From a virus: 64,000 nucleotides of DNA. The translations under genes were made by a program, and so were the position numbers. The stretch covers positions 1 through 64,000 of IMG/VR virus record IMGVR_UViG_3300027782_000054. The stretch is one strand, 5' to 3'. Shown piece by piece: positions 5,096 to 64,000 of the stretch. Position 1 is the first letter of the stretch. Each line of letters begins with the position of its first letter. The notes under the pieces are model-generated. The model was given only the letters and a program-made list of their open reading frames with translations, was not told the origin of the DNA and searched no databases.

Positions 5096-5124
5096 AACCT
5101 TGAAACTTTACTGAATGTTTACAT

Positions 5125-5391
5125 TCAGGATGTTTGACGCAGAACATCGCCATAGGCTCTTGAAAGATCAAAGCCATCGGCAGGAGCAAGAGCGCCATTG
5201 TTAAGTTGACCCTTTTGATTAAATTCTGTAACAACAATCTTGCCAGCCGTATTGTCGATACCTTCATCTACAAGGGCATCGCTTAAGCCAAGATAAGCAG
5301 GTGTAGGATTATTGGGGTTTACGCCAATACCATCTGTATGAAAAACACCAGAGGCAGCAGTCTTTTTGTAGTTTTTCTGATCGTTAGTCAT
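5125..5391 (-). CDS. Hypothetical protein (possibly virion)
   Basis: 88 aa, SD GAGG. Confidence 0.7.
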   Translation of the reverse strand: MTNDQKNYKKTAASGVFHTDGIGVNPNNPTPAYLGLSDALVDEGIDNTAGKIVVTEFNQKGQLNNGALAPADGFDLSRAYGDVLRQTS

Positions 5392-5400
5392 GATTCCTCT

Positions 5401-5649
5401 TTATATCTTAGATTTATTTACGGTTGTATAAGAAGCCTGGAAATCTGTAGCGCCATTGTCTGAGTCTGTTCTGAAGACTTTGGTCTGAACCTGGACATTG
5501 CGATCCTCCGCTGCGTAAGCAGCGCGAGCTACTTCATTATAGGTATTAACAGGTCTTGTCTCTGTATCAGTGTAGACAGTTCCGGTCTGCGCCGCAAAAG
5601 CGTAAGCACCTGGAATGTTTAGAACAAAAGATGATGAAGATGTAGCCAT
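5401..5649 (-). CDS. Hypothetical protein (possibly virion)
   Basis: 82 aa, Ala/Thr-rich, SD AGGAGG. Confidence 0.7.
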   Translation of the reverse strand: MATSSSSFVLNIPGAYAFAAQTGTVYTDTETRPVNTYNEVARAAYAAEDRNVQVQTKVFRTDSDNGATDFQASYTTVNKSKI

Positions 5650-5702
5650 TAAGTATTCCTCCTATATTTTAAGCATAGGAAGATAGAAAGATAAAGGTAC
5701 TA

Positions 5703-5775
5703 AGGCCCCTCCAAGGATCGAACTTGGGCTTGGGAGGTAGAAACTCCCCGTGATAATCCACTTCACTAAGGGGCC
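5703..5775 (-). tRNA. tRNA-Arg(TCT)
   Basis: GGCCCCT/AGGGGCC acceptor stem, GGGAG-TTTCTAC-CTCCC anticodon arm. Confidence 0.85.
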
Positions 5776-46140: not shown

Positions 46141-46938
46141 ATGGCTAATACCGCCGCACAAACATACGTAGGAGCTACTGGTGTAACTGGTCCAGCTGGC
46201 GCTGCTGGTGCATCCGGTTCTACAACTTATGCAGGCAGTCTTGCCTCTTCATCTTCAGTTGCAGTTTCATCTGGAAATCAGACATATCTTCTGACTGGCA
46301 CAACTGGAGTAACTACCGTTACAGGTGGCACAAGTGGTTCAATATTAACTCTCATCGCTTCAGGGCAAGCCACGGGCGTCTGTGTCGTTCTCAACCATGC
46401 GGCATCTACCAACAACCTGTCGCTGCGTGACTCCGCAAACCTAGGGATTTACGCTGGTGAGTCCGTCACGTTCGTGTACGACGGAACAAAGTGGGTTGAG
46501 ATTGCCCGCGACCTTCGCAAAGTGCTGTCGTACAACTTTGCTGAAGCTTCCGGCAGTATTTCGTCAACGACCGTGGCTGGCGGAAACACGTTGGCTACAG
46601 CATCTTCGATTACGTTTGATGGTGCAACGCCCATTGTAATCACCCTCTACCTCTACTACTGGGCGACCGGTTCAACAGCCGGTAGCGCGGTCTTTGCAAA
46701 CCTGTGGGATGGCGCTACCGCAAAAAACCGAGTCGCGTACCTAAGTAACAGTGCGGTCGCTTCCGCGCAGTCCTTGACTCTGTTCACGCAGGTTCGGTTG
46801 ACGCCTACGGCTGCGGCTCGCGCCTACTCAATTCGTGCTTTTCGCGCAACCTCAAACGGAGAATGGGGAACAACCGATAATCCGAGCGCCACCGGCGATA
46901 ACGGGCAGGGTTTCATTCGCATTGAGCGGGACATCTAA
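46141..46938 (+). CDS. Cassette protein 1 (class A; putative fibre tip/adhesin)
   Basis: Shared core LSLRDSANLGIYAGESVTFxYDGTKWVE; GC-rich 3' part. Confidence 0.75.
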   Translation: MANTAAQTYVGATGVTGPAGAAGASGSTTYAGSLASSSSVAVSSGNQTYLLTGTTGVTTVTGGTSGSILTLIASGQATGVCVVLNHAASTNNLSLRDSANLGIYAGESVTFVYDGTKWVEIARDLRKVLSYNFAEASGSISSTTVAGGNTLATASSITFDGATPIVITLYLYYWATGSTAGSAVFANLWDGATAKNRVAYLSNSAVASAQSLTLFTQVRLTPTAAARAYSIRAFRATSNGEWGTTDNPSATGDNGQGFIRIERDI

Positions 46939-47010
46939 TGTCTCCGAACTTTTTCACTAGGTGTTTTTTTTGATGCGTACGAGAAGTTTCCCGGCATTGG
47001 TATAGGCTAA
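46938..47010 (+). pseudogene. Degenerate copy of 50638 small protein
   Basis: MSPNFFTRCFF* then, one base out of frame across a T8 run, DAYEKFPGIGIG*, matching CFPDAYDKYPGLGIG of 50638. Confidence 0.65.
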
Positions 47011-47087
47011 TTAATATTAATTTTGCCCAAAACCTTTATTTTTACTCTACAACCAAGAATAATATATAGAATGAATGGATTAACACA

Positions 47088-47414
47088 ATGACTGATGTTG
47101 TCACTAAATTTTATCAGGGGTATCTAGCTCCTTCTGGAACCAATATTACAGGAGTAGCTCCTGCTGCCACAAACTTTACTATTAAGCATATTGTATTTAG
47201 TAATGTAGGTACAGGAAGTGCTTCAATTGCTTGTGGATATAACAATATTGCCGTTTCTTCTAATTATATTATGCCAAGCGGCATTGTCATTGGTGCTGGA
47301 GAATGGGCAGAATCCACAGACATCTATGTTCTTAATGCTGGAGACTCATTATTTGCCGCAGCATCAGTCAGCGGTACAATTACCGCCACTGTCCATGGAA
47401 TCACTAGTACCTAA
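47088..47414 (+). CDS. Small jelly-roll-type virion adaptor protein
   Basis: 108 aa; IKHIVFSN, VLNAGDSL, ITATVHG pattern common next to phage fibres. Confidence 0.65.
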   Translation: MTDVVTKFYQGYLAPSGTNITGVAPAATNFTIKHIVFSNVGTGSASIACGYNNIAVSSNYIMPSGIVIGAGEWAESTDIYVLNAGDSLFAAASVSGTITATVHGITST

Positions 47415-47431
47415 ACTAGGGCAGGAATCGT

Positions 47432-48229
47432 ATGGCCTGGAAATTCTTTAATAATAGTGGACAGCAGAAGATTAATAGTCCTACATATGATTTTGCTACC
47501 GTTTCTTCAGCATCTTCTATTGCCATAGCAAACAATACCGTGAATTCAGTTACGGGGACAACAACTATCTCTTCTATGACTAATGGAGTGCCTGGAAGCA
47601 TCGTTACTCTTCAAGCTTCGGGTCAGGCTAATGGTACATGTCTTATCTTAGCAAATGGAACTGGATCAAATAATCTTTCATTAAGAGATAATCAAAATTT
47701 TGGTATTTACGCCGGTGAATCAGTTACTTTTCAATATAATGGTTTTAAGTGGGTTGAAGTTAATCGTAATATAAGAACTATTCTCCAAACAGTTAGAGTT
47801 ACTACTGCAACAACAATTACTGCAACTACTTCAACTTCAGGAAACTCTGGTGGAACATTAATAGCTGACTTGGGCGCAATGTCATTTGATGGAACTACTC
47901 CAATGTCTCTTGAATATCATATTCCATATATATATTCAAGTTTAAATGTAAATGGAATTAGTCGTGTTTTATTTTGGCAAACTTCTCCTTCTAGCATCCA
48001 GATAAGTAGTTACTTTTTATATTACCAACCCGACAATGCAGGACAAGAGTATTTTTCAATGAAAAACTCTTATCGTTTTACTCCTTCAGCTGGATCTGCT
48101 ACATATAGATTAACAGCTAATCGTGACAGCTCTGGAGTCAGTTCATCTGCTGCAGTGGCTGGAACTAATAATTCAGGAGGCCAATGCACAGGATACTTCA
48201 GAATTGCAAGATCTCTATCTTATGCTTAA
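47432..48229 (+). CDS. Cassette protein 2 (class B)
   Basis: MAWKFFNNSG start plus shared core. Confidence 0.75.
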   Translation: MAWKFFNNSGQQKINSPTYDFATVSSASSIAIANNTVNSVTGTTTISSMTNGVPGSIVTLQASGQANGTCLILANGTGSNNLSLRDNQNFGIYAGESVTFQYNGFKWVEVNRNIRTILQTVRVTTATTITATTSTSGNSGGTLIADLGAMSFDGTTPMSLEYHIPYIYSSLNVNGISRVLFWQTSPSSIQISSYFLYYQPDNAGQEYFSMKNSYRFTPSAGSATYRLTANRDSSGVSSSAAVAGTNNSGGQCTGYFRIARSLSYA

Positions 48230-48247
48230 ATATTAAGGATTATCAAT

Positions 48248-49027
48248 ATGGCATGGAATTTTTTTACAAATAATGGATCTACCAAATATAATTCAGGTGG
48301 GAATAGTCCTATTGTCGTAGCATCTGCTGCCTCTATTTCAATAACTAGCAATACTGTGAATTATATTACAGGGACAACATCTATAAGCTCTATGACTGGT
48401 GTAGCGCCAGGGGACACCGTAACTCTTTCTGCTTCCGGTCAAGCAACTGGTGGCTGTCTTATCCTAGTGCATGGAACCGGATCAAATAACCTTTCTCTTA
48501 GAGACTTGGCAAATTTCGGTATATATAATGGCGAATCGGTTACCTTCCAATACACAGGCTCATATTGGGTTGAAATCAATCGTAATGTAAAAGAGATTAT
48601 TAACTATAAATCTATTACAGCAGATACTTCTGTGACAACTTCATATAGCGAGACTTTTGCGGGTGTTTTCAATGTAGCCACAACGGACAATATAACATAC
48701 GATGGAGTCACTTATGTTGATATTGAAATGTATCTATCAGATCTTTATTCCCTTCTTATTAATGCAAATTTGTATCTTACCTTATGGGAAGTCAATAGCC
48801 AAACAGCAATTGGAAGAATAGCTAGGTATTCTGATCCTAGTAGCGCTGGTAATTTTCATAGACCTGGACATGGAAGAATTAGATTACAGCCTGGATCCGG
48901 AACATCTGGTGCATATCAGTATAAATTAGGCGCTAATTCCGTAACTGCCGCAACAACAATTGGAGGCGCTACTTATGCAGGTTCATACCTAAGAGTAGTA
49001 AGATCTCCCGCATCCATTTCTTCATAA
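48248..49027 (+). CDS. Cassette protein 3 (class B)
   Basis: MAWNFFTNNG start plus shared core. Confidence 0.75.
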   Translation: MAWNFFTNNGSTKYNSGGNSPIVVASAASISITSNTVNYITGTTSISSMTGVAPGDTVTLSASGQATGGCLILVHGTGSNNLSLRDLANFGIYNGESVTFQYTGSYWVEINRNVKEIINYKSITADTSVTTSYSETFAGVFNVATTDNITYDGVTYVDIEMYLSDLYSLLINANLYLTLWEVNSQTAIGRIARYSDPSSAGNFHRPGHGRIRLQPGSGTSGAYQYKLGANSVTAATTIGGATYAGSYLRVVRSPASISS

Positions 49028-49046
49028 AAAATTAGAAAGATACATT

Positions 49047-49826
49047 ATGTCTTGGAATTTATTTACAAACTACGGATCTATTAAGAAAAACACAACAAAA
49101 CAGACAACTGGAGTTGCCACAGTAGCTTCTGCGTCGTCTATTGCTGTAACCAATAACGCCATTAACTATATTACAGGTACAACAGGTATTACCAATATGA
49201 CCGGAGGAGTACTAGGAGGCATAGTTACCCTTATAGCATCCAATCAAGCCGCTGGAGCTTGTGTTGTTTTAAATCATGGTACATCAACAAACAATCTTTC
49301 TCTTAGAGATTCTATAAATCTAGGTATATATGCCGGTGAATCAGTGACTTTTCAATACAACGGTTCATATTGGGTTGAAATTAACCGTAATTTAAGAACT
49401 ATCATTGAGAATAAAGCTACTACATCTGCTATTACAACCATTACAACAACTGATACCTCATCATCTACATTGTTTGCTTCAACAAGCAGCATAACATATG
49501 ATGGTGCAACATATATTACTCTTGAAGTTTTTGCCCCAACTTGTGCGCCTCCAGCTATAGCCGGTAATTACGTTATTGCTACTGTTTATGATGGAAGTAC
49601 AAATACAGGCTATATGGTCGAACGAAAAACATGTGCCAGTGGTGCAGATTATGCTTCATTTACTGGAATTTCGACAATAAGACCTACAGCAGGCGCTCAT
49701 ACATACAATGTAAGACTGTGGCAAACAGTAAATGGTGGGAACGTAACCTCTGGTGTCGGTGGTGCAGGTGCTTATGTAAATGGAGGGATAAGAGTTAGTA
49801 GACTTTTATCTGGATATACAAATTAA
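49047..49826 (+). CDS. Cassette protein 4 (class B)
   Basis: MSWNLFTNYG start plus shared core. Confidence 0.75.
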   Translation: MSWNLFTNYGSIKKNTTKQTTGVATVASASSIAVTNNAINYITGTTGITNMTGGVLGGIVTLIASNQAAGACVVLNHGTSTNNLSLRDSINLGIYAGESVTFQYNGSYWVEINRNLRTIIENKATTSAITTITTTDTSSSTLFASTSSITYDGATYITLEVFAPTCAPPAIAGNYVIATVYDGSTNTGYMVERKTCASGADYASFTGISTIRPTAGAHTYNVRLWQTVNGGNVTSGVGGAGAYVNGGIRVSRLLSGYTN

Positions 49827-49882
49827 ACTTATATTTCAAGAACAACTGTCTTATAATAAGAGAAATGAGGATAGCATAAGCA

Positions 49883-50638
49883 ATGGCATGGAATTTATTC
49901 ACTAATACTGGTAGTCAAAAGACTAGTGGTACTGTTACTGCTGGTGTTTCTACAATAGCCTCTGCATCAAGCATTGCTATCACTAATAATTCCATTCATC
50001 TTATTACCGGTACAACTGGTATTAGTGCAATGACTGGTGGAGTTCTTGGTAGTTATGTAACACTTGTTGCAAGCGGACAGGCTACTGGTGTGTGTGTTGT
50101 TCTTAACAACGGAACTACGTCCAATGCTTTGAGTTTGCGTGACTCCGCTAATCTTGGCATTTATGCGGGTGAGAGCGTGACGTTCATGTATGACGGAACG
50201 AAATGGGTCGAGATCGGCCGCGACCTTCGCAGCGTCCTCGACTACGTGCAAGGCACCTCGAACACAAACATCACTGCCACAACGGCCGGTACCGCTAACA
50301 CCATTGTGACCGCCACAGCGTTTACATCAGACGGCGCAACACCAGTCGATATCACCTATTTTGCCGCAGCCATTGACACCCCTAACGTCGTAAACGGCAC
50401 CGTTAGTCTGATCCTGTACGAAGACGGCACGAACCGCGGACGCATCGGGGACTCCCCGGGCATTCAGAACACCCGTTTTGGCTTCGGCACATATGTGACT
50501 CGGCTTACACCGGCATCTGGTTCTCGCACTTATTCAATGCGCGGATATGTTAACGGTGGTACTGGCGTGATTCAGGCCGGTGCAGGCACAACGACGACCT
50601 ACACGCCGACGTACATCAAGATCAGCAGGGCGCTCTAA
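49883..50638 (+). CDS. Cassette protein 5 (class B)
   Basis: MAWNLFTNTG start plus shared core; GC-rich 3' part. Confidence 0.75.
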   Translation: MAWNLFTNTGSQKTSGTVTAGVSTIASASSIAITNNSIHLITGTTGISAMTGGVLGSYVTLVASGQATGVCVVLNNGTTSNALSLRDSANLGIYAGESVTFMYDGTKWVEIGRDLRSVLDYVQGTSNTNITATTAGTANTIVTATAFTSDGATPVDITYFAAAIDTPNVVNGTVSLILYEDGTNRGRIGDSPGIQNTRFGFGTYVTRLTPASGSRTYSMRGYVNGGTGVIQAGAGTTTTYTPTYIKISRAL

Positions 50639-50808
50639 TGCAACTAGTCATCAAAACAGACACAACGTATAACGAAGACAGGACTGTTAATACTCAAGGC
50701 AAGTGGTGGTATGAACATCCGGATGGTTTTGTATCGGATCAATTCGATAGCAGGGACGAATGCTTCCCTGATGCTTATGATAAGTATCCTGGTCTTGGTA
50801 TAGGGTAA
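50638..50808 (+). CDS. 56-aa protein, possible fibre assembly chaperone (not in ORF track)
   Basis: TAATG-coupled; MQLVIKTDTTYNEDRTVNTQGKWWYEHPDGFVSDQFDSRDECFPDAYDKYPGLGIG. Confidence 0.65.
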   Translation: MQLVIKTDTTYNEDRTVNTQGKWWYEHPDGFVSDQFDSRDECFPDAYDKYPGLGIG

Positions 50809-50864
50809 CTGGTCTTATATTGATAAAATAACTTCCTCATAATAAGAGGAATGGGAATAATATA

Positions 50865-51647
50865 ATGACTAGTAGCTCTGAACAGACTTATATGGGTCCT
50901 GCTGGTCCTAGTGGCGCAGCTGCTCCCTATGGAATATCCACAATAGCTTCTGCGTCTACAGTAGCCATTACGTCTGGATATACACATCTTATCACTGGCG
51001 TAGTCCCCATTACTAAAATGACTGGTGGTATCCAAGGGTATACAGTGACCTTGGTCGCTTCTGCTCAATCATCTGGAATTTGTATTATCATTACCAATGG
51101 TGATGGTTTTACACAAGACACACTTAGTTTAGTTGGATCAAGATCACTTGGTCTTTATGCTGGCGAGTCTATTACTTTTCAATATGATGGTGGATCATGG
51201 AATGAAGTCGGGAGAAATCTAAAAGATATATTAGATTTTCAATCAATATCTTCGACAGTGCCTTTCACTGGTGGACAGTTCTCTATAGCACAACTCGTAA
51301 TAGCACATAATGCTATCACGTTTGATGGTGCGACTCCTATTGAAATTAAGTTTCATTGTCCAGCAATTACCGCTCAAAAACCCTATGGTAGCGATGGTAT
51401 ATCAATACAGATATGGGCAGGAACGGTCTATACTGCGGATATTGGATACATGGGAAAAGGAAATATCCAAAGTTCTAGTTACATTGGATCATACTCTCGA
51501 TACTTTATTCCTCCTCACTCATCAGTACAATATACCATTAGAGTTTTGGGAACTGTTGAAAGTCCAGGTTCAAATTATATTCAAGCAGGAAATAGTAGTT
51601 CAGGTAATTATGGAAATGCTTACTCAGTAATAAGAAGAGCGATTTAG
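50865..51647 (+). CDS. Cassette protein 6 (class A)
   Basis: MTSSSEQTYMGPAGPSG start plus shared core. Confidence 0.75.
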   Translation: MTSSSEQTYMGPAGPSGAAAPYGISTIASASTVAITSGYTHLITGVVPITKMTGGIQGYTVTLVASAQSSGICIIITNGDGFTQDTLSLVGSRSLGLYAGESITFQYDGGSWNEVGRNLKDILDFQSISSTVPFTGGQFSIAQLVIAHNAITFDGATPIEIKFHCPAITAQKPYGSDGISIQIWAGTVYTADIGYMGKGNIQSSSYIGSYSRYFIPPHSSVQYTIRVLGTVESPGSNYIQAGNSSSGNYGNAYSVIRRAI

Positions 51648-51655
51648 GATATACA

Positions 51656-52438
51656 ATGACAAGTAGTATTTCACAAGTATATATAGGAACAATGGGACAA
51701 ACTGGACCCACTGGTCCTACTCATAATTCAGGATCTATTCATATATATTCAGATTCTTCTATTGCAATAACCCCCTACTCCACAAACTATATACAGCTTG
51801 GGGATAATCAGATTATCCAATCCATGACAGGGGGATCACCTGGGGATATTATAAATATAAAATCAGATGTATTCCCTCCTCCTGACATCCCCGGAAAAAC
51901 TTATCTTACTCTGCAGAATGGCGTTGGATCAAATAGCCTTTTATTGAGAGATTCTAAGGATGTTAGTCTTTATATTGATGATTCAGTAATGTTTCAGAAT
52001 GATGGAACTCAATGGATTGAAATAAGTCGCAATATTCAAAAAGTATTGTCTCATCAATCATCATCTTCTTCAAAAACTATCAATCATAATACTGAGGCCA
52101 CTGCTAGTCTAGCCCTTACTCATGATCAATTTGAGTTTGATGGATCTACTGCAATAGAAATTATGTACTTTATGCCTAAACTTGACTTAGCCGACACAAG
52201 CTTTTCTGTAATATTATTTGACAATGGTTCTTCTGTAGGCAAAATGGGATATTCAAATATTACGGCAACTTACCCATCTTCTGTTTCACAACTTTTAACA
52301 CCGACATCTGGAAGCCATGAATATAGTATTAGATTATTGAATTCAGGAAGCAATCCAACGACTATATCTGCAGGCGCTGGTACTTCATCAGGGTCTAATC
52401 CAGGCCCAATGTATTCAATAATGAGAAGGATATCGTAA
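51656..52438 (+). CDS. Cassette protein 7 (class A)
   Basis: MTSSISQVYIGTMGQTGPTG start plus diverged core. Confidence 0.75.
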   Translation: MTSSISQVYIGTMGQTGPTGPTHNSGSIHIYSDSSIAITPYSTNYIQLGDNQIIQSMTGGSPGDIINIKSDVFPPPDIPGKTYLTLQNGVGSNSLLLRDSKDVSLYIDDSVMFQNDGTQWIEISRNIQKVLSHQSSSSSKTINHNTEATASLALTHDQFEFDGSTAIEIMYFMPKLDLADTSFSVILFDNGSSVGKMGYSNITATYPSSVSQLLTPTSGSHEYSIRLLNSGSNPTTISAGAGTSSGSNPGPMYSIMRRIS

Positions 52439-53181
52439 TGGCTAGTAGCTCTCTACAAGTATATCCTGGCCCTACTGGTGCTACTGGAGCAGCTATACCC
52501 GCTAGTATTTCAACCATAGCCTCTAGTGGCTCTATTGCAATTACTCCAGACTATACTCATTTAATTACTGGAACAAATACAATAAGCACGATGACTGGTG
52601 GAACTACTGGATCAACCGTTATTCTCATTGCTTCTGAAAGTGACATACTTATACTAAGTCATGATACTGGGTCAGATAATTTAAAACTAAGAGACAGTAA
52701 GAATTTTGGCATCTATTCTGGTGAATCTGTGACTTTCCAATATGATGGCACAAAATGGATAGAAGTTGGTCGTAATACCAGATCAATCCTTAGCTACAAA
52801 TCTACTCAATCTGCTATTACTGTCAGTGGAACATCTGAAGCTACTGCTGTATCTCTCTTTAGCCATGACTCTATCCCTTGCGATGGAGTAACTCTAGTCC
52901 AAATTGAATTTAGTTGCAACGCATTGACATCCAGTACGTCTAGTGATACATATTTTGTACTTTTTGAAGACGGAGTATCAAAAGGATTCATAGGAGTAAG
53001 CACCATGGACTCAGTATCATACCCGATAACAACTTCTAGAATATTCACACCTTCATCTGGAAATCATCAATATTCTATAAAAGCCTATAGAACTACTGGG
53101 AACAATACTATCCAGGCTGGCAATGGAACATCGGGAAATTACAGCGCTGCATATTCTATAATTACAAGAGTTTTCAGGTAA
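52438..53181 (+). CDS. Cassette protein 8 (class A)
   Basis: MASSSLQVYPGPTGATG start plus shared core. Confidence 0.75.
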   Translation: MASSSLQVYPGPTGATGAAIPASISTIASSGSIAITPDYTHLITGTNTISTMTGGTTGSTVILIASESDILILSHDTGSDNLKLRDSKNFGIYSGESVTFQYDGTKWIEVGRNTRSILSYKSTQSAITVSGTSEATAVSLFSHDSIPCDGVTLVQIEFSCNALTSSTSSDTYFVLFEDGVSKGFIGVSTMDSVSYPITTSRIFTPSSGNHQYSIKAYRTTGNNTIQAGNGTSGNYSAAYSIITRVFR

Positions 53182-55112: not shown

Positions 55113-56165
55113 ATGAGACTACACCTTGTTGCAATGCCCCATACTAAAGTAACCGCAGAGTTTTGCGGTTGTGCATATACGGCGAAGGCATTGAAGTTCT
55201 GCAAAATGATGACTGCTATTGGTCATGAAGTTATTCTTTACGCGCCCGAAGGCAGCGATGAGACTTATGCCAAACTAGTAGTTTGTCTTACAAATGAAGA
55301 GCGCATTGGCATCTTTGGTGAAGATGATTCATCAAGACTTCCTGCGTGGCCTAATGATGATGAGTGGAGGCTCTTTAATCAAAGAGCCATTGAGGGTATC
55401 AAGGAAAACGCAGATCCTCACGATCTTGTTCTTCTAGCATCTGGTTGGTCACAAAAGGCTATCCAAGATGCTCTTCCTGATCTTCTTTATTGTGAGCCAG
55501 GAGTAGGATATGAAGGTATCTTAACCTCAAGATGTGCATTTGAATCATATGCCTGGATGCATCATATCTATGGCAAAGCCAATATCAATGATGGTAGATG
55601 GTATGACGCTGTAATTCCAAATTACTTTGATATGGCCGATTTCCCCACTATTGGAGAAGGAAAAGGCGGTTACCTAGCTTACCTAGGCAGACTTATTCAT
55701 CGTAAGGGTGTAGAAACTGCTGCTCAAATAGCCAAAGATATGGGTATGCCATTAAAGATTGCTGGTGCAGGTCATATGAATCTACCTGGAGATGTTGAAT
55801 TTATTGGTCCAGTAAATGTGCAACAAAGGGCCGAATTCCTTGGTGGAGCAGTCGCTCTACTTACTCCAACCTATTATATTGAGCCATTTGGCGGTGTAGC
55901 CATTGAAGGAATGATGTCTGGAACACCTGTAATCACCACAGATTGGGGTGCTTTTAGCGAAACAGTCAAGAATGACGTAAGCGGATACCGTTTCAGACTG
56001 CTCCGTGAGGCCATAGAAGGCGTTGAGAAGGCTGCAAGCCTTGATCGCAATGCTGTGCGTCAGTATGCAATAGATAACTATTCACTAGAAGCCGTAGGAC
56101 CCATGTTTGATAAATGGTTTAATAACCTTCAAACACTCTGGGGCGATGGCTGGTATGCTAAATAA
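55113..56165 (+). CDS. GT4 family glycosyltransferase
   Basis: YLGRLIHRKG, EPFGGVAIEGMMSGTPVITTDWGAFSE. Confidence 0.9.
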   Translation: MRLHLVAMPHTKVTAEFCGCAYTAKALKFCKMMTAIGHEVILYAPEGSDETYAKLVVCLTNEERIGIFGEDDSSRLPAWPNDDEWRLFNQRAIEGIKENADPHDLVLLASGWSQKAIQDALPDLLYCEPGVGYEGILTSRCAFESYAWMHHIYGKANINDGRWYDAVIPNYFDMADFPTIGEGKGGYLAYLGRLIHRKGVETAAQIAKDMGMPLKIAGAGHMNLPGDVEFIGPVNVQQRAEFLGGAVALLTPTYYIEPFGGVAIEGMMSGTPVITTDWGAFSETVKNDVSGYRFRLLREAIEGVEKAASLDRNAVRQYAIDNYSLEAVGPMFDKWFNNLQTLWGDGWYAK

Positions 56166-56234: not shown

Positions 56235-59200
56235 ATGGAATTTTACCCACTAGGCGACGACTCTTTAGGTACAGACGGCAGTGTTCAGCATGATATCCCC
56301 CTTGAGACTTCTGTTTCTACTTCTGTTAGGGAAAATAAAAAAGCATATGTTCTATTGGTGTCTGCTACGCAGAATGTTCTTTCGTTCCTTTATATCCTAA
56401 AAGCTGTGATCCTTGCTGCATCTATTCTCACCTCTATTCCTAATGCGATAGGAAAAGCAATTGCCAAGCGCATTCCATTTATTCAGAGTCCCTCATTTGC
56501 ATTTAGTCATGCAATTCAATTATTTATCGGCAAGATCACTGCTCTTACTCAATCATCTCTTGCTACCACAATAGTCCATGAGCTTAAGACCATTGCTATC
56601 ATAGTAGCCGACTCTGCAAATCTTACAAAAAATATCCTCTTTAATCGCTTAGTAAGTCAATCTGCCAATATTGCTCGTACAAATGCCATAGCCAAGACAA
56701 TCTTGGCTACGCAAGGCTTGTTCATTGCTGTTATTAAGGCTATCGCACTAACTATTGCTTCAAGTGTGACAACTACAGTCAATGTTGCCAAAGATCATAT
56801 TCAGCATCTTAAGGCCATCGCTGCTTCTGTACTTGGAACAGCATCTCTACTTAAGAATATTGGGTTCAATAGATCTGCTTCACAAAGCTCAAATCTATCC
56901 CGCAATAACCTTATCTCTAGAACTATTTCAGCTGCACAAAGCGCGTCATTTGGACTTGGAAGAGGCATCCAGTTCTTTATCGGGAAGTTTGTAGTTGCAA
57001 CTCAATCTTCAGTCGTAACAAAAACGGTCAAAGATCTGAAAACTATTGCAGCTTCTGTGGTAGCATCAGCCTCAATCTCTAAGGCTATCTCATTCGCTAG
57101 ATCCATTACCCAGTCTTCAAATCTAAGTGCTGCAAAAGCCTTTAGTCAACTTATCTCTGTTGTTCAATCTACTAACTATGCCCTTGCCAAGGGTTTCCAA
57201 ATGCTTGTCGGCAAGTTTGTTATCTTCACTCAAGCTTCAGTTATTAGAAAAGCAGTTAAAGAGCTAAAGACAATCTCTGCCATAGTAGCTGATTCTGTCA
57301 ATATTGCTAAACTTATCTCATTCAAGAGATTAGCGGGTGCTGTTAATTCAGGTTTCCTAGCTAAAGAAACATCTCTCGTTCGTCGCGTAACACAGTCCTC
57401 TTCCTATGGATTCACCAGAGGGTTCCGCATGGCTATTGGCAAGTTTATTGTAAGTACAGTTGGCTCTGTCATTAGGAAAACAGTCCAAGAGCTTAAAACG
57501 ATCTCTGCCACTGTGTCAGACTCTGTCACTCTTTCTAAGGCTAAGTCACTTACTCTGGCGATTCTGCAGTCATCCAGTCTCTCTCCGACTAAGGCTATTG
57601 GTAAATTTGTATCTGCTTCTCAAGGAGCAGCTTATGGATTTACCAAGGGTTTCCAGATGGTGGTTGGAAAGATTATTATTGCCACGGATGCTTCTGTTGT
57701 CCGCAAAGCAGTACAAGAACTTAAGACCATTTCAGCTACAGCATTAAGTTCTGTCAGTGTACTTAAGAACATCCTATTTAATAGAACGGCTTCCCAGTCT
57801 GCTACATCTACATTAACAAAGTTTATATCAAAAACAATAATTGTCTCACAAAGCATTGTTGCTTATATAACCAAGGCTATCAATAAGCTCATTCAGGGTA
57901 TTAATGTTGCAACACAAGTATCAGTCAATTCAGACATTATTCTTCACCTGAAGGCCATCTCTGTTGCAGTTGCAAACTCAGCATCTCTAATGAAGGCAAT
58001 CTTATTCAATAGACTTGCTACTCAATCAGAAAGCCTCGCACAAAATAAATTCATTGCAAAGACAACCTCTTCCATTCAGTCTTTATCTTACGGCTTTGTA
58101 AAAGGATTCCAGATGGTGGTTGGAAAGATTATTGTCGATGCACAGGCTTCAGTTATTCGCAGAACAGTACAGGAACTTAAGTTTATCTCTGCAGCTGTAG
58201 CCAACTCAGCCACAATAGCCAAGAGCGTTCTATTTAATAGGATCGCCACTCAATCATCAACTGTCTTCATCGCCAAGGCTATAAGTAAAACTATTGCATT
58301 CGCTCAAAGCCTTATCTTTGTCTTTACTAGAGGAATGCAACTCTTTGTCAGCAAGACTATAGTTGATGTATCTGCCTCAGTCGTAAGAAGATCTATTAGT
58401 GAACTTAAGGCTATCTCAGCGACAGTATCTAACTCAGTCAATCTTATGAAGAGTGTTCTTTTCAATCGCATAATTGTACAGTCATCTACTTCTCGTCTAA
58501 CAAAGGCAATCTCTAGATTTGTTGATTTTGCTCAAGCAGCAACTGTTGCTCTAACAAACAATAGAGCTATATACCAAACTATATCTACACAAGTATCATC
58601 TTCAATAGCTCGCATTATTGATGTCTCTAAGGGTGTCGCCTCTAGCGTAGCCACCTACTCAATGCCATTCAAGGCGATAACTCTTGATATTGCCAAGATC
58701 ATCTCTGCTTCAGTCGTGACTGTTGCCAAGGACAACATAAGAGAATTTAAGATGATTGCAATATCTGTAGCTAACTCAGTTTCAATAGCGAAGGCAATTG
58801 TATTTAATCGGTTTGTAAATCAATCAAGCAGTTTAACGAGAAATGTTGCTATTAATAAAGCCGTATCAATTTCTCAGAGCATAGCGTTCACCTTCGCAAA
58901 GGGCGTTCAAATTGCTGTTGGTAAAATCATCGTTGCAATCCAGGCTTCTGTAGCAAGGATGACTGTTCAGGAGCTTAAAGCAATTGCCGCTTCAGTCTCT
59001 AACTCAGTAAGTGTTGCAAAGTCCACCGTGTATGCAATACAATTGTTGCAAAGCTCTAGTTTAAACCTCACAAAGTTTATCTCTAAAGCTGTTTCCGCCG
59101 GACAAGCAATATTCTTTGTCTTCGCCAAGGGCGTACAAATCCTCGTTGGAAAGACAATAGTCGCGTCTGTAGGCTCTGTAGCTAGGAAAACTGTTCAAGA

Positions 59201-62200
59201 ACTCAAAGCGATTACGGCCACTGTTGGAAACTCCGTTACTCTGTCTAAGGCCAAGTCGCTTACCTTAACCGTTCTACAGTCATCTACGCTTGGACCAGTA
59301 AAGGCCATCACAAAGTTTGTATCTGCGGCACAGGGAGCGTTATATGGCTTCACAAAGGGCTTCCAAATGGTCGTGGGCAAGGTTATTGTGTCTATCCAGG
59401 CATCAATGGTCAAAAAGTCTATAGCGGAACTTAAGGCGATTGCTGCTTCAGTTGCAAATTCAGTCAATATTACGAAAAATATCTTCTTCAATCGTGCATT
59501 CAATCAAGTTACGTCAGTTGCTCGCACTAATGCCATACACAAGAATATTAGTGCCATCCAAGGCTCACTTGTTGCAATAGCAAAATTAGTTGCATTAACA
59601 CTTAGTGCCTCTGTAAATACAATTGCGACTGTGACCAAAACTCACATTGCACATCTCAGAACCATCTCTGTCTCTGTCTTTAATGCAGCTACTTTAGTCA
59701 AGAATATCTCATTCAATAGAATCTCATCTCAGTCTGCCACTCTAATACGCGGTAAGGCTATCTCTAGAGCGGTATCTATTGCACAATCTACATTCTATGT
59801 CTTTAGCAAGGGCGTACAGATATTTGTCAGTAAGTTCATCGTAGATACTCAGGCATCTGTTGTCAGAAGAGCAGTTAAAGAGATTAAGACGATCTCTGCT
59901 ACTGTATCAAATTCAGTATCTATCGCCAAATCAATCTTATTCAATAGAAGCATCTCTCAAGCAAGTAATCTATCTTCACACAAGTCAACTAACAAATTTG
60001 TTAATGCTGTACAAAGCTCTTATTTCGTATTCTCTAGGGGAGTGCAGCTATTCATTAGCAAGTTCATCGTTGCCTCTGTTGTTTCTGTTGCCAAAGTCGC
60101 TGTTGCTGAGATCAAGGCTATCTCCGCATCTGTATCTAGCTCTGTCAATTTGACAAAGGCTATCTCATTCAGCAGATTTATTACACAATCTAATAACCTA
60201 CAGCACAACAAAACTATCTCTAAAGCAATAGATGTTGTTCAATCTTCATTCTTTGCTTTAGCCAAGGGTTTTGAAATGATCGTAGGAAAGATTGTAGTCG
60301 TAATCCAGTCTTCAGTAATAAGAAGAACAGTCAGCGAACTGAAGACTATCTCTGCTTCAGTCGCCAATTCAATCAACCTACTTAAACTTATATCATTCAG
60401 CAGAAACGTAAATCAATCTTCAGTTCCTGGGTTCACCAAGGGCTTCCAGATGTTCATCTCTAAATTCATTGTTGAAACACAAGCCACTGTAGTCAAGAGA
60501 GCAGCGGAAGAATTCAAGATAATCTCTGCCACTGTATCTAGCTCAGTATCATTAGCTAAGGAAATCTTATTTAATAGATCCCTAATCCAAGGTTCGTCAT
60601 CAACAATAGCCAAGGCGATTTCCAAATTCATATATGCATCACAAAGCACTTCAGTAAATATTGCAAAGAGAATCTCTCTAGTAATTAAGGCATCTGTTTC
60701 TACTATAGTAACTCTGATTAAGACACACGTTGCACATCTCAGGACAATTGCTGTAGCAGTCTCAAATCCAACATCGCTTATTAAAGCAGTGCAGCAACAC
60801 AAGCCTACCTTAGTAGCTTCTAATTTCGTATTCAATAAGTTTATTGGGACAGCCTTATCAGTAACACAGGGCGCTCTTTATGGATTTACCAAGGGCTTCC
60901 AAATGTTCATTAGTAAGATCATTGTCGATACTCAGTCTTCTCTGGTAAGAAGATCTATTCGTGAAATTAAGACAATTTCACTAGCAGTAATGAGTTCAGC
61001 GAATGTTGCCAAGAATATATTGTTTACTAGACTTACTACACAATCATCTATTGTATCTTTAAACAAGGTCGTATCTCTTACGATTGCCTTTGTACAAAAT
61101 ACAGCCTATACCTTCCTTAAGGGTTTCCAGATGCTCGTTGGCAAGTTTATCGTTGCAACACAGATTGCTGTAGCCAGAAAAGCAATTGCTGAAATCAAGG
61201 CTATCTCGGCTATCGTCTCAAACTCAGCTTCAATTGCAAAGGCCATCTTATTCAGTCGCAATGCTACTCAATCATCTAGTTCTGAAATCGCTAAAGCAAT
61301 CTCAAAGATTGTTCACTTCATACAGAGTGCTTCGTATTCAATTAGAAGAAATGTTTACCTAACAATATCTAGTGTTGTTAATGTATCTGTAACTCTTAGC
61401 AAGATGGGAGTAGCACATCTCAGGACTATCTCTGTATCTGTATCTAATTCAGCTACTCTAATCAAAGACCTTGTCTTTAATAGAAGTGCGTCACAAGCCT
61501 CTGTCTTGAATCCTGCTAAGTTTATCTCTAAGACTACATCTCTCGCTCAGAGCATGGCCTACGGCTTCACGAAGGGCTTCCAGATGGTTGTAGGCAAGAT
61601 CATATCTGCCACTCAAATAGCCGTAGCTAGAAAAACTGTTCAGGAACTTAAGGCAATCACGTTTGCTGCCGCTAGCAATGTAAATATTACAAAAGCTATA
61701 TTCTTAAGTACGCTTGTTACTCAGAATATATCTGCGACAATAACTAAGCTTATTGGTAAGACCTTGGAGGCTATCCAATCTGCGGTTGCTACTCTAGCTA
61801 AGAATATATCTCTAACCATACGCAGTATAGTTACCACAGTAGTAACTGTAACTAAGACTCATATTGCTCACCTCAGGACCATTTTAGCAACGGTAGGAAG
61901 TCCTGCATCCTTGGTGAAGGCAGTGCAGCAGCATAAGGTAGTCACAACCCCCCTGAGCTTTACTTTTGTTAAGCACATCAGAGAAACTCTCTACGCTTCT
62001 CAAGGCGCTGTTTACGGGTTTATCAAGGGTTTCCAGATGGTCGTCGGTAAGATCCTATCTTCTACTCAGATAACTCTTGCTAGAACAACAATTGCAGAGC
62101 TTAAGACTATCTCTCTTACTGTTGCAAATACAGCCAATCTCAATAAGGCTATCGCCTTTAGTAGAGTAGTAGCACAATCCTCAACAGTTGCTCTATTTAA

Positions 62201-64000
62201 AACTATCAATAAGTTTGTTATTGCGACCCAAGGAACATTTGCATCAATTGTTAAGAATGTCTCTCTAACAATTCTTGCATCAGTTAACACAGTCACCGAT
62301 ACTATTAGAGATATCGTCGCTCATCTCAAGACCATTGCCGTAAGCGTAGCTAATACAGCGAATCTTAGCAAGGAAATTCTATTCACTAGATTTGCGTCAC
62401 AAGTTAATACAATCAATTCTTCCAAGATTGTATCTAAGTACCTCCAGCTTTCACAGACAACAGTCTATGTCTTTACGAGAGGTTTCCAGTTATTCATTAG
62501 CAAGTTCATAGTGGCGATACAAGCTGTAGTTGTAAGAAGAGCCATTGCAGAGCTTAAAACAATCACGGCTTCAGTATTTAATACTGCTTCTATCATAAAA
62601 TCAATTGCATTTAATCGTAACGCAAGTCAATCCTCTACGATTGCTCCTCAAAAGTTTATTTCTAAAGCCACTTCATTTACTCAGGCTATGGCATATGGGT
62701 TCACTAGAGGATTCCAGATGTTCATTGGTAAGCTTGTAGTAGGGGTTCAACCAATTGTTGCTAAGCTAGCAATCTCTGAACTTAAAGCAATTACCGCAGC
62801 TGTAGCTAATTCAATTAATCTAACTAAGGATATCCTGTTCAGTAGATTCATTAGCCAATCCTCTAACCTAAAGAGATTCAATGCCATAGACAGAGCGATT
62901 GCTATTGCTCAAGGCGCAGCCTATGGGGTTACCAGGGGATTCCAGATGTTAGTTGGTAAGTTCGTTATCGCAACGCAGATGTCAGTTGCTAGAAAGACTA
63001 TCTCTGATATCAAGACCATTGCTCTTACGGTTAGCAGTAATACAAAGATTGCCAGGGATATCGTGTTCAATAGAGCAATTATCAATAACACACAAGTAAC
63101 TGTTACTAAGAGCATAAATAAGGCAATTAGCATCGCTCAAGGCATCTCTGCATCAATTGTTAAGTACATTTCACTAACCATTATTGGGTCTGTGAATACA
63201 GTCGTAACTGTGAATAGAGCAAGCATCGCACACATAAAGGCAGTATCTGCTTCTGTATCCAGCACAGTCAATCTTACAAAGAGTATTCTATTCAATAGGG
63301 CTATTGGACAATCAGTAATTGTTAACCTCACTAAGGTTGTATCTAAGACAATCACGTTTGCACAAACAGCTGCCTACAGCTTTACGAAGGGCTTCCAAAT
63401 GTTTGTTGCTAAGTTCGTAGTAGCAACTCAAATGACTGTTTCAAAGCTCACAGTAGCAGAACTAAAAACAATTTCAGCAACAGTTGCTAACTCTATATCT
63501 CTAAATAAACTTATTTCATTCAATAGAGAAATATCTCAAGCTTCTTCAGCAACCTTATCTAAGGCTATTTCCAAGCTCATCGTATTAGTCCAAACAATGT
63601 CATATGGCACAGTTAAGGCTGTAGGAATACTCGTTGGTCGTATACTTACTGTCACACAATCATCTGTTGTCAGGAAGACAATTGCAGATCTTAAGACAAT
63701 AAGTACAACAGTCGCAAGCTCTGTATCACTAGCCAAGGTCGTTGAGCTTAGACGCCTTGTGGCTCAGTTGTCAAGTCTATCTCTATCAAGAACTATAGCT
63801 CAATTCATCTCTGTATCACAACAGACTGCCTATTCACTTGCCAAGGGCTTCCAAATGTTCGTAGGTAAGATCATAATTGAAATACAAGCATCTATGGTCA
63901 GGCTCACAGGTCAAGAGCTAAAGACAATTGCTACTACCGTTGCTAACTCTGTGAGACTTTCTAAGCGTATCTCATTCAAGAGATTCGCAGTTGTTATCGA
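56235..64000 (+). CDS. Giant repeat protein, >2,588 aa, 3'-truncated by window (absent from ORF track)
   Basis: Starts MEFYPLGDDSLG. The same frame reads SKRISFKRFAVVI at the window end. The ORF track lists no closed ORF in this frame, consistent with no stop. Hierarchical repeats. Confidence 0.88.
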   Translation, partial: MEFYPLGDDSLGTDGSVQHDIPLETSVSTSVRENKKAYVLLVSATQNVLSFLYILKAVILAASILTSIPNAIGKAIAKRIPFIQSPSFAFSHAIQLFIGKITALTQSSLATTIVHELKTIAIIVADSANLTKNILFNRLVSQSANIARTNAIAKTILATQGLFIAVIKAIALTIASSVTTTVNVAKDHIQHLKAIAASVLGTASLLKNIGFNRSASQSSNLSRNNLISRTISAAQSASFGLGRGIQFFIGKFVVATQSSVVTKTVKDLKTIAASVVASASISKAISFARSITQSSNLSAAKAFSQLISVVQSTNYALAKGFQMLVGKFVIFTQASVIRKAVKELKTISAIVADSVNIAKLISFKRLAGAVNSGFLAKETSLVRRVTQSSSYGFTRGFRMAIGKFIVSTVGSVIRKTVQELKTISATVSDSVTLSKAKSLTLAILQSSSLSPTKAIGKFVSASQGAAYGFTKGFQMVVGKIIIATDASVVRKAVQELKTISATALSSVSVLKNILFNRTASQSATSTLTKFISKTIIVSQSIVAYITKAINKLIQGINVATQVSVNSDIILHLKAISVAVANSASLMKAILFNRLATQSESLAQNKFIAKTTSSIQSLSYGFVKGFQMVVGKIIVDAQASVIRRTVQELKFISAAVANSATIAKSVLFNRIATQSSTVFIAKAISKTIAFAQSLIFVFTRGMQLFVSKTIVDVSASVVRRSISELKAISATVSNSVNLMKSVLFNRIIVQSSTSRLTKAISRFVDFAQAATVALTNNRAIYQTISTQVSSSIARIIDVSKGVASSVATYSMPFKAITLDIAKIISASVVTVAKDNIREFKMIAISVANSVSIAKAIVFNRFVNQSSSLTRNVAINKAVSISQSIAFTFAKGVQIAVGKIIVAIQASVARMTVQELKAIAASVSNSVSVAKSTVYAIQLLQSSSLNLTKFISKAVSAGQAIFFVFAKGVQILVGKTIVASVGSVARKTVQELKAITATVGNSVTLSKAKSLTLTVLQSSTLGPVKAITKFVSAAQGALYGFTKGFQMVVGKVIVSIQASMVKKSIAELKAIAASVANSVNITKNIFFNRAFNQVTSVARTNAIHKNISAIQGSLVAIAKLVALTLSASVNTIATVTKTHIAHLRTISVSVFNAATLVKNISFNRISSQSATLIRGKAISRAVSIAQSTFYVFSKGVQIFVSKFIVDTQASVVRRAVKEIKTISATVSNSVSIAKSILFNRSISQASNLSSHKSTNKFVNAVQSSYFVFSRGVQLFISKFIVASVVSVAKVAVAEIKAISASVSSSVNLTKAISFSRFITQSNNLQHNKTISKAIDVVQSSFFALAKGFEMIVGKIVVVIQSSVIRRTVSELKTISASVANSINLLKLISFSRNVNQSSVPGFTKGFQMFISKFIVETQATVVKRAAEEFKIISATVSSSVSLAKEILFNRSLIQGSSSTIAKAISKFIYASQSTSVNIAKRISLVIKASVSTIVTLIKTHVAHLRTIAVAVSNPTSLIKAVQQHKPTLVASNFVFNKFIGTALSVTQGALYGFTKGFQMFISKIIVDTQSSLVRRSIREIKTISLAVMSSANVAKNILFTRLTTQSSIVSLNKVVSLTIAFVQNTAYTFLKGFQMLVGKFIVATQIAVARKAIAEIKAISAIVSNSASIAKAILFSRNATQSSSSEIAKAISKIVHFIQSASYSIRRNVYLTISSVVNVSVTLSKMGVAHLRTISVSVSNSATLIKDLVFNRSASQASVLNPAKFISKTTSLAQSMAYGFTKGFQMVVGKIISATQIAVARKTVQELKAITFAAASNVNITKAIFLSTLVTQNISATITKLIGKTLEAIQSAVATLAKNISLTIRSIVTTVVTVTKTHIAHLRTILATVGSPASLVKAVQQHKVVTTPLSFTFVKHIRETLYASQGAVYGFIKGFQMVVGKILSSTQITLARTTIAELKTISLTVANTANLNKAIAFSRVVAQSSTVALFKTINKFVIATQGTFASIVKNVSLTILASVNTVTDTIRDIVAHLKTIAVSVANTANLSKEILFTRFASQVNTINSSKIVSKYLQLSQTTVYVFTRGFQLFISKFIVAIQAVVVRRAIAELKTITASVFNTASIIKSIAFNRNASQSSTIAPQKFISKATSFTQAMAYGFTRGFQMFIGKLVVGVQPIVAKLAISELKAITAAVANSINLTKDILFSRFISQSSNLKRFNAIDRAIAIAQGAAYGVTRGFQMLVGKFVIATQMSVARKTISDIKTIALTVSSNTKIARDIVFNRAIINNTQVTVTKSINKAISIAQGISASIVKYISLTIIGSVNTVVTVNRASIAHIKAVSASVSSTVNLTKSILFNRAIGQSVIVNLTKVVSKTITFAQTAAYSFTKGFQMFVAKFVVATQMTVSKLTVAELKTISATVANSISLNKLISFNREISQASSATLSKAISKLIVLVQTMSYGTVKAVGILVGRILTVTQSSVVRKTIADLKTISTTVASSVSLAKVVELRRLVAQLSSLSLSRTIAQFISVSQQTAYSLAKGFQMFVGKIIIEIQASMVRLTGQELKTIATTVANSVRLSKRISFKRFAVVI
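56480..64000 (+). repeat. Degenerate coding tandem repeat: 18-20 aa subunits, ~76 aa (228 nt) and ~151 aa (453 nt) super-repeats
   Basis: (K/R)G(F/M/V)(Q/R) anchors at 57189, 57417, 57645, 58101, 58329, 58899, 59127, 59355, 59808 etc. Confidence 0.85.

Follow-up and report, generated by a model that had tools for sequence, protein, structure and literature searches.

The window analysed in this work is the first 64 kb (positions 1 to 64,000) of a 95,174-b viral contig, IMG/VR record IMGVR_UViG_3300027782_000054, which was judged to be ~60% complete. Between positions 46,141 and 53,181 it carries an array of eight paralogous open reading frames (ORFs) of 247-265 amino acids (aa), all encoded by the plus strand and each with its own start, which we call tip genes 1 to 8 after the reading that fits their products best (Table 1). 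The array had been noticed earlier by a model that saw the letters and their ORFs alone (the original prediction), and its description of the genes as eight paralogs with a shared core held: the ORF listing gave the same coordinates, and the consensus of our alignment (ASASSIAIT..ITGTT.IS.MTGG..GSIVTL.ASGQ...NLSLRDS.NLGIYAGESVTFQYDGTKWVEI.RNLR) reproduced the core motif. Aligned over their full length, the proteins have 19 invariant columns and show 30-42% identity to the product of gene 1. Searching the whole 95-kb contig with a profile of the eight returned exactly eight copies. The array lies, as had been stated, between two ORFs for collagen-like G-X-T proteins of 1968 and 611 aa, and the eight paralogs and two fibres form a cluster of receptor-binding protein (RBP)-type genes within 15 kb. 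Most array genes are separated by -1 to 56 nt; the gap is 149 nt before an interposed ORF of 108 aa (a108) and 226 nt after gene 5. Promoter and terminator scans of the array revealed nothing above the shuffled background that would split it.

The array was compared with related metagenome contigs (L009 to L022 and others; L025 denotes the same record beyond the window, L025:3176 being contig position 67176) and with contigs from the metagenome runs X2, X3, X4 and X6, which hold parts of the array stretch. Array content, whose comparison between related genomes had been proposed along with the prediction, varies among close relatives. In L009 the orthologue of gene 5 is followed by the fibre, without genes 6-8, and the L017 array has an 804-aa fibre and another class-A body.

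Table 1. Genes of the tip array and of its surroundings. Positions are those of the window unless marked as contig positions.
Feature	Position	Strand	Remarks
Tip gene 1	46141-46938	+	Class A, MANTAAQTYVG and 5 G-X-Y triplets; mosaic of a resident 5' part and an imported GC-rich head
a108, 108-aa jelly-roll protein, candidate adaptor/connector	47088-47414	+	17 nt upstream of gene 2
Tip gene 2	47432-48229	+	Class B, MAWKFFNNSG (MAWKFF sub-type, the one always directly after a108)
Tip gene 3	48248-49027	+	Class B, MAWNFFTNNG (MAWNFF)
Tip gene 4	49047-49826	+	Class B, MSWNLFTNYG (MSWNLF)
Tip gene 5	49883-50638	+	Class B, MAWNLFTNTG (MAWNLF); mosaic with imported GC-rich head; protein modelled by AlphaFold2
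Tip gene 6	50865-51647	+	Class A, sub-type MTSSSEQTYMG
Tip gene 7	51656-52438	+	Class A, sub-type MTSSISQVYIG; most divergent D1 (30-44% identity to the others)
Tip gene 8	52438-53181	+	Class A, sub-type MASSSLQVYPG; start overlaps the gene 7 stop
Collagen-like (G-X-T) fibre, 1968 aa	40212-46118	+	N-terminal domain, several globular nodes, C-terminal domain (fibC)
Collagen-like fibre, 611 aa	53224-55059	+	Pfam Collagen E 2.3e-20, tail-fibre PHROGs; homologous fibre in L009
GT1-family glycosyltransferase	55113-56165	+	Pfam Glycos_transf_1 E 3.5e-14; ~100% identical (rounded) to the L009 counterpart
ORF of 3631 aa without Pfam family	56235-64000, on to contig 67130		Directly downstream of the fibre cluster
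Minimal fibre module	contig 67176-68475		140-aa protein consisting of the fibre N-domain only, a110 (110 aa), 174-aa Phage Tail Collar protein MPFFNSTL
Portal	30005-32077		~38-42% identity to portals of Rhodococcus phage Finch, Gordonia phages and cluster-C Mycobacterium myophages
Eight tRNA genes (Met, Gly, Thr, Gln, Pro, Leu, Ile-tat, Arg)	1557-5775	-	Clustered

The structure of the gene 5 product was modelled as a monomer with AlphaFold2, using an alignment of 47 sequences (predicted local distance difference test, pLDDT, 90.6; predicted template modelling score, pTM, 0.82). Residues 1-18 have low confidence and are followed by two beta-sandwich domains, D1 (residues ~20-116) and the jelly-roll D2 (residues ~117-251), which together we call the cassette; there is no beta-helix. 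D1 superimposes on the C-terminal sandwich of a tailspike depolymerase, gp83 of the Acinetobacter phage Solidus (24qj), with a VIA-align Z score of 9.4. All eight proteins match the Pfam family PF25692 (Phage_depo_C) within D1 at 17.0-21.9 bits (E 2.5e-4 to 9e-3), under the curated cut-off of 25 bits. The Solidus match suggests that D1 is distant kin of Phage_depo_C. For D2 the best structural match is the TNF-like lectin PLTL (9ib6; VIA-align Z 12.8, root-mean-square deviation 2.3, 122 aligned residues), and further matches include the C-terminal domain of Chlamydia Pgp3 (4jdn, Z 12.4), the Bdellovibrio fibre tip Bd2734 (Z 11.5), EDA-A1 (Z 10.6), C1q-type domains (Z 9.8-10.4), BclA (1wck, Z 9.9) and cyanophage tail proteins (Z 9.8-10.3), among them the binding domain of the A-1(L) short tail fibre (Z 9.8). 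The TNF/C1q superposition spans residues 113-251 of the model. With the whole model, the best Foldseek match was the N-terminal region of CBA120 TSP4 (E 7e-6), with a low template modelling (TM) score of 0.28.

D2 matched no Pfam or PHROG family, and profile searches of the tips against PDB sequences found nothing. An exhaustive profile search of cluster representatives (clustering at 50% identity) showed that D2 belongs to a large family: 3,776 representatives reach E <= 1e-3 and 2,460 of them E <= 1e-10, and the majority match D2 alone. The domain is carried by stand-alone proteins of 150-200 aa, by a PKD protein and by giant proteins holding two to five copies, and D2 or D1+D2 forms the C-terminus of pectate-lyase tailspike-like proteins, collagen fibres and phage Collar-domain proteins. 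Matches in BFVD bear names such as C1q-domain, pectate-lyase and actinophage minor tail protein. In the small high-GC contig L022 a family member closes a head-to-tail structural module, where it follows the major head gene, an 819-aa ORF and a 418-aa ORF. From the fold and from the architectures of the homologues, the distal tip of a fibre or spike is the best reading of the eight proteins, in agreement with the tip identity originally proposed.

The two domains diverge at different rates. Mean identity between the paralogs is 54% in D1 and 25% in D2. Since synonymous sites are saturated between the paralogs, ratios of nonsynonymous to synonymous substitution (dN/dS, omega) calculated from them were unusable and were set aside; orthologous genes in related metagenome contigs were compared instead. 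Omega in D1 and D2, respectively, was 0.23 and 0.78 for gene 2 (L015 orthologue), 0.20 and 0.58 for gene 3 (L015) and 0.15 and 0.67 for gene 4 (L011), at similar dS in the two domains. Both the per-domain conservation and the omega values (0.15-0.25 in D1 vs 0.58-0.78 in D2) bear out the claim of a more diverged second domain. Between gene 6 and a partial orthologue in L010, D2 is 99% identical and D1 with the N-terminal peptide 100%.

Genes 1 and 5 are mosaics. The contig has a GC content of ~0.41, and the array stretch is at 0.33-0.43 except for two segments, 46300-46940 and 50100-50640, which reach 0.53-0.585. GC content at third codon positions (GC3) is 0.57-0.61 in the heads (D2) of genes 1 and 5 and 0.12-0.29 elsewhere. 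In gene 1 GC3 is 0.20 over codons 1-60 and 0.57-0.59 afterwards, in gene 5 it rises from 0.17 to 0.57-0.61. The two parts of these genes have different relatives. Nucleotides 1-363 of gene 1 are 85% identical to a class-A gene in L014, whereas for nucleotides 313-798 the match is a class-B gene in L017 (90.7%). Similarly, nucleotides 1-331 of gene 5 are 94% (L010) and 90% (L009) identical to orthologues whose heads differ, whereas nucleotides 307-754 are 84% identical to a gene in L022, a contig with a GC content of 0.65. At the DNA level the breakpoints fall at codons 103-121, within the motif GESVTFxYDGxxWxExxR at the D1/D2 border. Compared as proteins, the two heads share 88-94% identity with heads located behind class-B, MAVPFPF, GFPP and MAITGxK modules, and ~77% with a head behind a fibre-N-terminal module. 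The whole heads of genes 1 and 5 are thus horizontal imports, acquired at a fixed D1/D2 joint. After transfer they have been under purifying selection (omega 0.06-0.19).

The mosaics are not assembly artefacts, because contigs from independent runs bridge the junctions. X3 contigs span 46387-46541 (the junction in gene 1) and 50022-50304 (gene 5) without differences, and an X6 contig spans 50393-50713, so that X3 and X6 together bridge both ends of the gene 5 import. In X2 a related contig parts from gene 1 at precisely 46501 (codon 120). Two spacers of the array are unusually long (46939-47087 and 50639-50864); each follows an imported head, and they share 40 nt at 80% identity (46971-47010 and 50769-50808). 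An a108-like remnant was not found behind gene 5. Of the spacer after gene 5, 117 nt (50640-50758) are swapped for 18 nt in run X2. These spacers are probably donor flanks that were brought in with the heads. Apparent joints from 51100 to 47700 and loose ends at 47743 were considered as rearrangements and rejected; they are cross-matches between paralogous D1 regions.

No reverse transcriptase (RVT_1) or invertase (Resolvase) match was found in the 95-kb contig, and the array contains neither inverted repeats nor a near-identical repeat pair of the template/variable type found in diversity-generating retroelements (DGRs). The absence of the two enzymes that had been reported for the window thus extends to the contig; because the contig is ~60% complete, DGR or invertase genes could lie elsewhere in the genome. 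The accompanying proposal, that diversity arises from gene copies rather than from a shufflon or a DGR, was right about the copies and about the machinery but too narrow, as heads are also replaced horizontally at the fixed joint.

The N-termini fall into two classes, as originally described. Class A (genes 1, 6, 7 and 8) follows the pattern M(A/T)xxxxQ(T/V)YxG, class B (genes 2-5) the pattern M(A/S)W(N/K)(F/L)FxNxG. Over the first 33 alignment columns, mean identity is 41-62% within and 5-24% between classes. Class A divides further into the sub-types MANTAAQTYVG and M(T/A)SS..Q.Y.G. The class-A peptide is followed by two to five G-X-Y triplets, which are absent from class B; the best match of the tips to Pfam Collagen has an E value of 0.18 and concerns gene 1 only. 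Of the earlier definition of class A as a peptide plus a collagen stub, the peptide was confirmed; with so few triplets, "collagen stub" was generous.

The N-terminal peptides were surveyed in 84 metagenome relatives and in the retrieved loci, and both were found on several kinds of body. The class-B peptide precedes the cassette, Collar+cassette fusions of 385-417 aa, an unrelated 200-aa body (L016) and, 20 kb farther downstream in this phage, the 174-aa Collar protein. MAN(T/S)AA.TY.G, the peptide of class A, precedes the cassette, an unrelated 249-aa body (L017) and a 235-aa Collar protein (L009), and an independent contig from run X4 tracks gene 1 to codon 20, then enters the 249-aa body type. 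Among 25 class-B proteins that are otherwise 33-43% identical to the gene 2 product, M1, W3, F6, G10 and K13 are invariant, and the 13-residue peptide is 65% identical vs 37% for the linker behind it. MANTAAQTYVG is near-invariant. In five of seven orthologue pairs the first 24 residues (peptide and linker) are 100% identical despite synonymous changes; because the N-terminal codons of the paralogs also differ synonymously, the constraint acts at the level of the protein. In farther relatives the N-module is a different one, 70-100 residues long (MAVPFPF..., MAITGxK..., GFPP...), or is taken from the N-terminus of a collagen fibre, and in the relative P0081 a fibre C-terminal domain is fused straight to the cassette. 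These observations support the claim that the two peptides are separate conserved modules, re-used on unrelated bodies and tracking gene position.

A podovirus-like contig with a GC content of 0.58 (L018:4148-7545) has three tandem genes that share another N-module (M..YNIVN...), and two of the three end in the cassette domain. Arrays that combine a common N-terminal tag with varied tips therefore recur in unrelated phages.

The product of a108 was also modelled with AlphaFold2 and is an eight-strand beta-sandwich or jelly roll (pLDDT 89.6). It belongs to a family of ~105-aa proteins that counts 137 or more metagenome clusters. No Pfam or PHROG family matched it, and a profile search against PDB sequences gave a chance-level match alone (E 0.006). 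Its resemblance to the exosporium proteins ExsFA/BxpB has a Foldseek E value of 5e-4 to 9e-4 and a TM score of about 0.45. The original prediction had noted that class B follows the 108-aa gene, and the same order was found in six of six loci (the array itself, L014, L015, L016, L017 and the second copy, a110), where an a108 homologue lies immediately 5' of a class-B-type gene. The L016 homologue is only 29% identical, in a contig with a GC content of 0.59. The gene right after a108 is always of the WKFF sub-type. The second copy, a110, is 42% identical to a108 (E 5e-24) and is located between the 140-aa fibre-N protein and the Collar protein of the minimal module. Class A shows a more limited rule of order. 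MAN(T/S)AA-type genes stand directly 3' of a fibre in three loci; since genes 6-8 and the 611-aa fibre break this order, "class A follows a fibre" is limited to the MANTAAQTYVG sub-type.

Docking of class B on a108 was also addressed by co-folding, as the original prediction had suggested. Residues 1-125 of the gene 2 product and the a108 protein were each entered three times; this 3:3 design differs from the one on which the tool was calibrated. The score was 0.38 (runs 0.35-0.43), all three controls scored 0.00, and no interface was reported. The runs agreed in at least 91% of contacts, and the pLDDT of the partners was at least 81. Among solved complexes 58 of 80 reached the mark, among mismatched pairs 2 of 110; at a score of 0.60 or less it was reached by only 7 of those 80 solved complexes, and by both passing mismatches. 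Because this support is weak, docking of class-B tips on a108 stays an inference, drawn chiefly from the comparative data.

The two fibres that flank the array share domains. The N- and C-terminal domains of the 1968-aa fibre, whose gene ends 22 nt before class-A gene 1, recur in the fibres of L017 and L009; the 611-aa fibre begins with this N-terminal domain too and has a fibC-like domain in its interior. The Pfam search of the fibres gave Collagen alone and identified no T4gp10-like branching domain. The long fibre has two copies, and the short fibre one, of a globular insert (YSAGILG.Y..D...GG.P..G.IRWSN...), which gives the fibres the appearance of beads on a string, and they also hold carbohydrate-binding-like motifs (W..G..Y..GD.V.Y.G..Y). 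These inserts and motifs could be branching nodes.

Adjoining the fibres is a sugar-modification cluster (GT1 in Table 1 and L025:4515-9726), which comprises genes for GT1, GT2, a GDP-mannose 4,6-dehydratase (E 8e-98) and a C-methyltransferase. The GT1 enzyme may glycosylate the Thr-rich collagen or the tips, and by analogy with BclA or with the fibrils of giant viruses the cluster suggests that the fibres are glycosylated. The 3631-aa ORF next to the fibre cluster is also kept in the relative L009 (5930 to contig end).

The carrier of the array is a large uncultured freshwater phage. Sampled words of the stretch were found in freshwater and lake metagenome runs (X1 to X7), of which X1 may be the source sample, and the contig encodes ribonucleotide reductase, DnaB, primase, a large DNA polymerase, UvsX, TerL, portal, ThyX and a dNMP kinase. 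The kinship of the portal with those of actinophages contrasts with the low GC content of the phage (0.41) and its origin from lake water. A WhiB gene, which would be a clue to an actinophage or its host, was searched for on the contig and none was found. The portal likeness is a hint of a low-GC actinobacterium of freshwater as the host. INPHARED was searched by DNA and by tblastn; the queries with the array, the polymerase gene, tip gene 5 and a member of the a108 family gave zero matches, and the portal alone matched. Scanning 185,579 species genomes with the tip-family profile revealed no relatives, hence no prophage copy or host clue. Neither a first tip-profile scan of viral contigs nor an a108-family scan of viral contigs returned relatives.

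With moderate confidence, we explain the locus as encoding eight tips of a host-recognition apparatus, which are mounted by tags and whose heads are renewed by duplication, change and exchange. The N-terminal attachment peptide (~11-13 residues, disordered alone, of two or three types) would set the place of mounting. D1 would serve as a conserved beta-sandwich neck and D2 as a divergent TNF/C1q-like head that sets what is bound, most likely a glycan or a protein of the host surface. Class-B tips would mount via the jelly-roll protein encoded just upstream, class-A tips on the collagen-like fibre. Three processes would renew the repertoire: duplication of genes, rapid amino-acid change in D2, and recombination at the GESVTFxYDGxxWxExxR joint, by which the whole head is replaced horizontally. 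A DGR or a shufflon would have no part in it. The original prediction had envisaged a plug-in repertoire of tips with an N-terminal code; its tip-like folds, modular peptides and divergent second domains were borne out, and docking on the fibre or on a108, like a place in the virion, would be the conjectural part.

A stricter version, which we regard as possible but doubtful, takes the peptides as a code for the assembly of composite fibres, in which class A would address the nodes or ends of glycosylated collagen fibres and class B, Collar tips included, a connector of the a108 family. In that case a single virion could display eight or more different TNF/C1q-like lectin heads, and captured foreign heads would be functional at once, because the tag and the neck stay resident. 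Read in this way, the locus would parallel in a phage the spore nap of BclA and ExsFA, and it would offer a natural plug-and-play platform for RBPs that brings in a new family of adaptors.

Several points weigh against the explanation by tag-mounted tips or limit it. The homotrimeric state of the tips is probable only by analogy with TNF and C1q, and their location in the virion would follow only from the gene neighbourhoods of homologues. Recognisable baseplate or tail genes were not found beside the fibre cluster on the ~60%-complete contig. Genes 6-8 have no fibre before them, as they precede the 611-aa fibre, and the latter is not followed by a class-A gene in this phage. The average omega of D2 stays under 1 and so does not demonstrate positive selection. 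For a108 the fold matches (a phage cement trimer, Ena subunits, nucleoplasmin) have Z <= 8.4 and are generic, and the co-folding result counts here as well, with its weak score, a design unlike the calibration and no reported interface.

The last of these points would also suit an arrangement in which the eight proteins are independent short fibres or spikes, attached directly to the baseplate or another virion socket and not to the collagen fibres or a108, with two socket types for the two classes and a108 acting as an assembly chaperone or as an unrelated small structural protein, for instance a cement or decoration protein. We consider this unlikely, though it is the strongest competitor. 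The fold of a108 lies near that of a trimeric capsid cement protein (7dou, Z 7.9) and of generic jelly rolls, genes 6-8 do not follow a fibre, and phage fibre chaperones are often small genes within fibre clusters (Pam3 gp25, PMC9608196). On the other hand, the order of a108 and class B is strict in all six loci, including the deeply diverged ones, and the mini-module order of fibre-N protein, a110 and Collar protein reads as a proximal-to-distal assembly. Known fibre chaperones are usually encoded 3' of the fibre they fold and bind its distal end, which speaks against a chaperone role for a108. The co-folding score, low as it is, stands against 0.00 in all three controls.

It is improbable, in our view, that the fibres and tips make up a capsid decoration or a glycosylated "hairy" coat for general adhesion or protection, of the kind known from the BclA nap and giant-virus fibrils. 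Homologues with D1+D2 end tailspike-like and tail-fibre-like proteins, one of them at the tail end of a structural module; the Collar domain that is fused to class-B peptides is a tail-fibre domain; and quick turnover of heads with exchange between phages is the signature of host-range determinants. Such a coat would nevertheless account for the BclA-like parts of the locus, namely the Thr-rich collagen, the C1q-like head (1wck), the ExsFA/BxpB-like jelly roll and the glycosyltransferase with its sugar-modifying neighbours, as well as for the lack of baseplate genes nearby and for a match of D1 to the capsid spike 9ny6 (Z 7.5). Secreted or intracellular non-virion lectin-like factors (decoys, superinfection exclusion, host-surface modifiers) are very improbable: the case for virion association is indirect and TNF-like lectins such as PLTL and Pgp3 exist as free proteins too, but the N-termini show no signal peptide, the genes form a tight series in one orientation with a fibre gene on either side, and in relatives the family occurs in fusions with modules of fibres, Collar proteins and tailspikes.

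In the genomes of uncultured phages, no part is harder to predict than host recognition. The present locus allows tag, neck and head to be separated by sequence alone, and it caught head capture in the act, with confirmation in independent samples. It also brings out two large families that are missing from curated libraries, the D2 head (~3,800 clusters at 50% identity) and the ~105-aa jelly roll, whose annotation would improve the calling of RBPs in metagenomes. If the tags dock as proposed, they would form a compact non-enzymatic toolkit, and labelled heads could be used to study or fish out the hosts of freshwater phages.

Some parts of the tag-mounted arrangement have counterparts in other systems. 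The mosaic adhesive trimer (MAT) fibres of Bdellovibrio (PMC10769870), which include the Bd2734 tip (8okw), resemble the array in being a many-gene repertoire with interchangeable TNF-like tips, and these tips bind sugars. MAT fibres, however, are single polypeptides of ~600-1000 aa from a predatory bacterium, whereas here the tip is a separate gene product that would need non-covalent attachment. In the exosporium nap of the Bacillus cereus group, BclA and ExsFA/BxpB (1wck, 7r1m, 8d02) combine a targeting peptide, collagen repeats, a C1q/TNF-like trimeric head and a jelly-roll anchor. The phage locus shares with BclA the Thr-rich collagen and the nearby glycosylation genes but has no sequence relationship to it, and the long collagen region is absent from the tips, which have the few triplets of class A or, in class B, none. 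We regard the likeness to BclA/ExsFA as a functional analogy only, and the resemblance of a108 to ExsFA as generic. In cyanophages (Pam3 gp24, PMC9608196; A-1(L), 8ke9; the A4 tail, 9k09) a TNF-like jelly roll likewise serves as the distal receptor-binding domain of the fibre. These fibres are encoded by single genes and have a helical or sandwich chaperone of their own, such as gp25 of Pam3, whereas here arrays of separate peptide-tagged tips are found.

The exchange of heads resembles classical tail-fibre mosaicism. In the gp37/gp38 fibres of the T-even phages and in those of P2, Mu and P1, recombination at short conserved motifs swaps the distal parts between unrelated phages. Here the joint is a specific motif between D1 and D2, a domain pair that carries no annotation. 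An invertase operates in P1 and Mu, and no match to an invertase of this type was found on the contig.

Closest in principle are the branched RBP systems of the Klebsiella phages KP32, K11 and KP34, of Ackermannviridae such as CBA120 (TSP1-4) and of Alcyoneusvirus RaK2/phiK64-1, which has ~10 RBPs (PMC13352976, PMC6872550, PMC10253068, PMC11721090). The first 29 aa of the KP32 RBP2 protein gp38 are a docking element that is able to carry foreign bodies (PMC13352976, PMC6872550, PMC10253068). As in the KP32 and CBA120 systems, the RBP-type genes stand in a row, a short conserved N-terminal peptide is independent of the body, and the distal specificity domains are traded between phages. In contrast to those systems, the array consists of eight ~250-aa TNF/C1q-like tips without a beta-helix depolymerase body, has two or three peptide types and a well-defined joint motif, and offers as candidate platforms a free-standing 108-aa jelly roll and collagen-like fibres, with no T4gp10-like branching domain identified by Pfam. 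Docking was demonstrated for KP32 and is proposed for the array. The principle of a resident tag, an exchangeable specificity part and several RBPs per phage is thus already established, while its key docking step is inferred here; the natural capture of heads and a candidate adaptor family are what this locus adds for specialists in phage RBPs.

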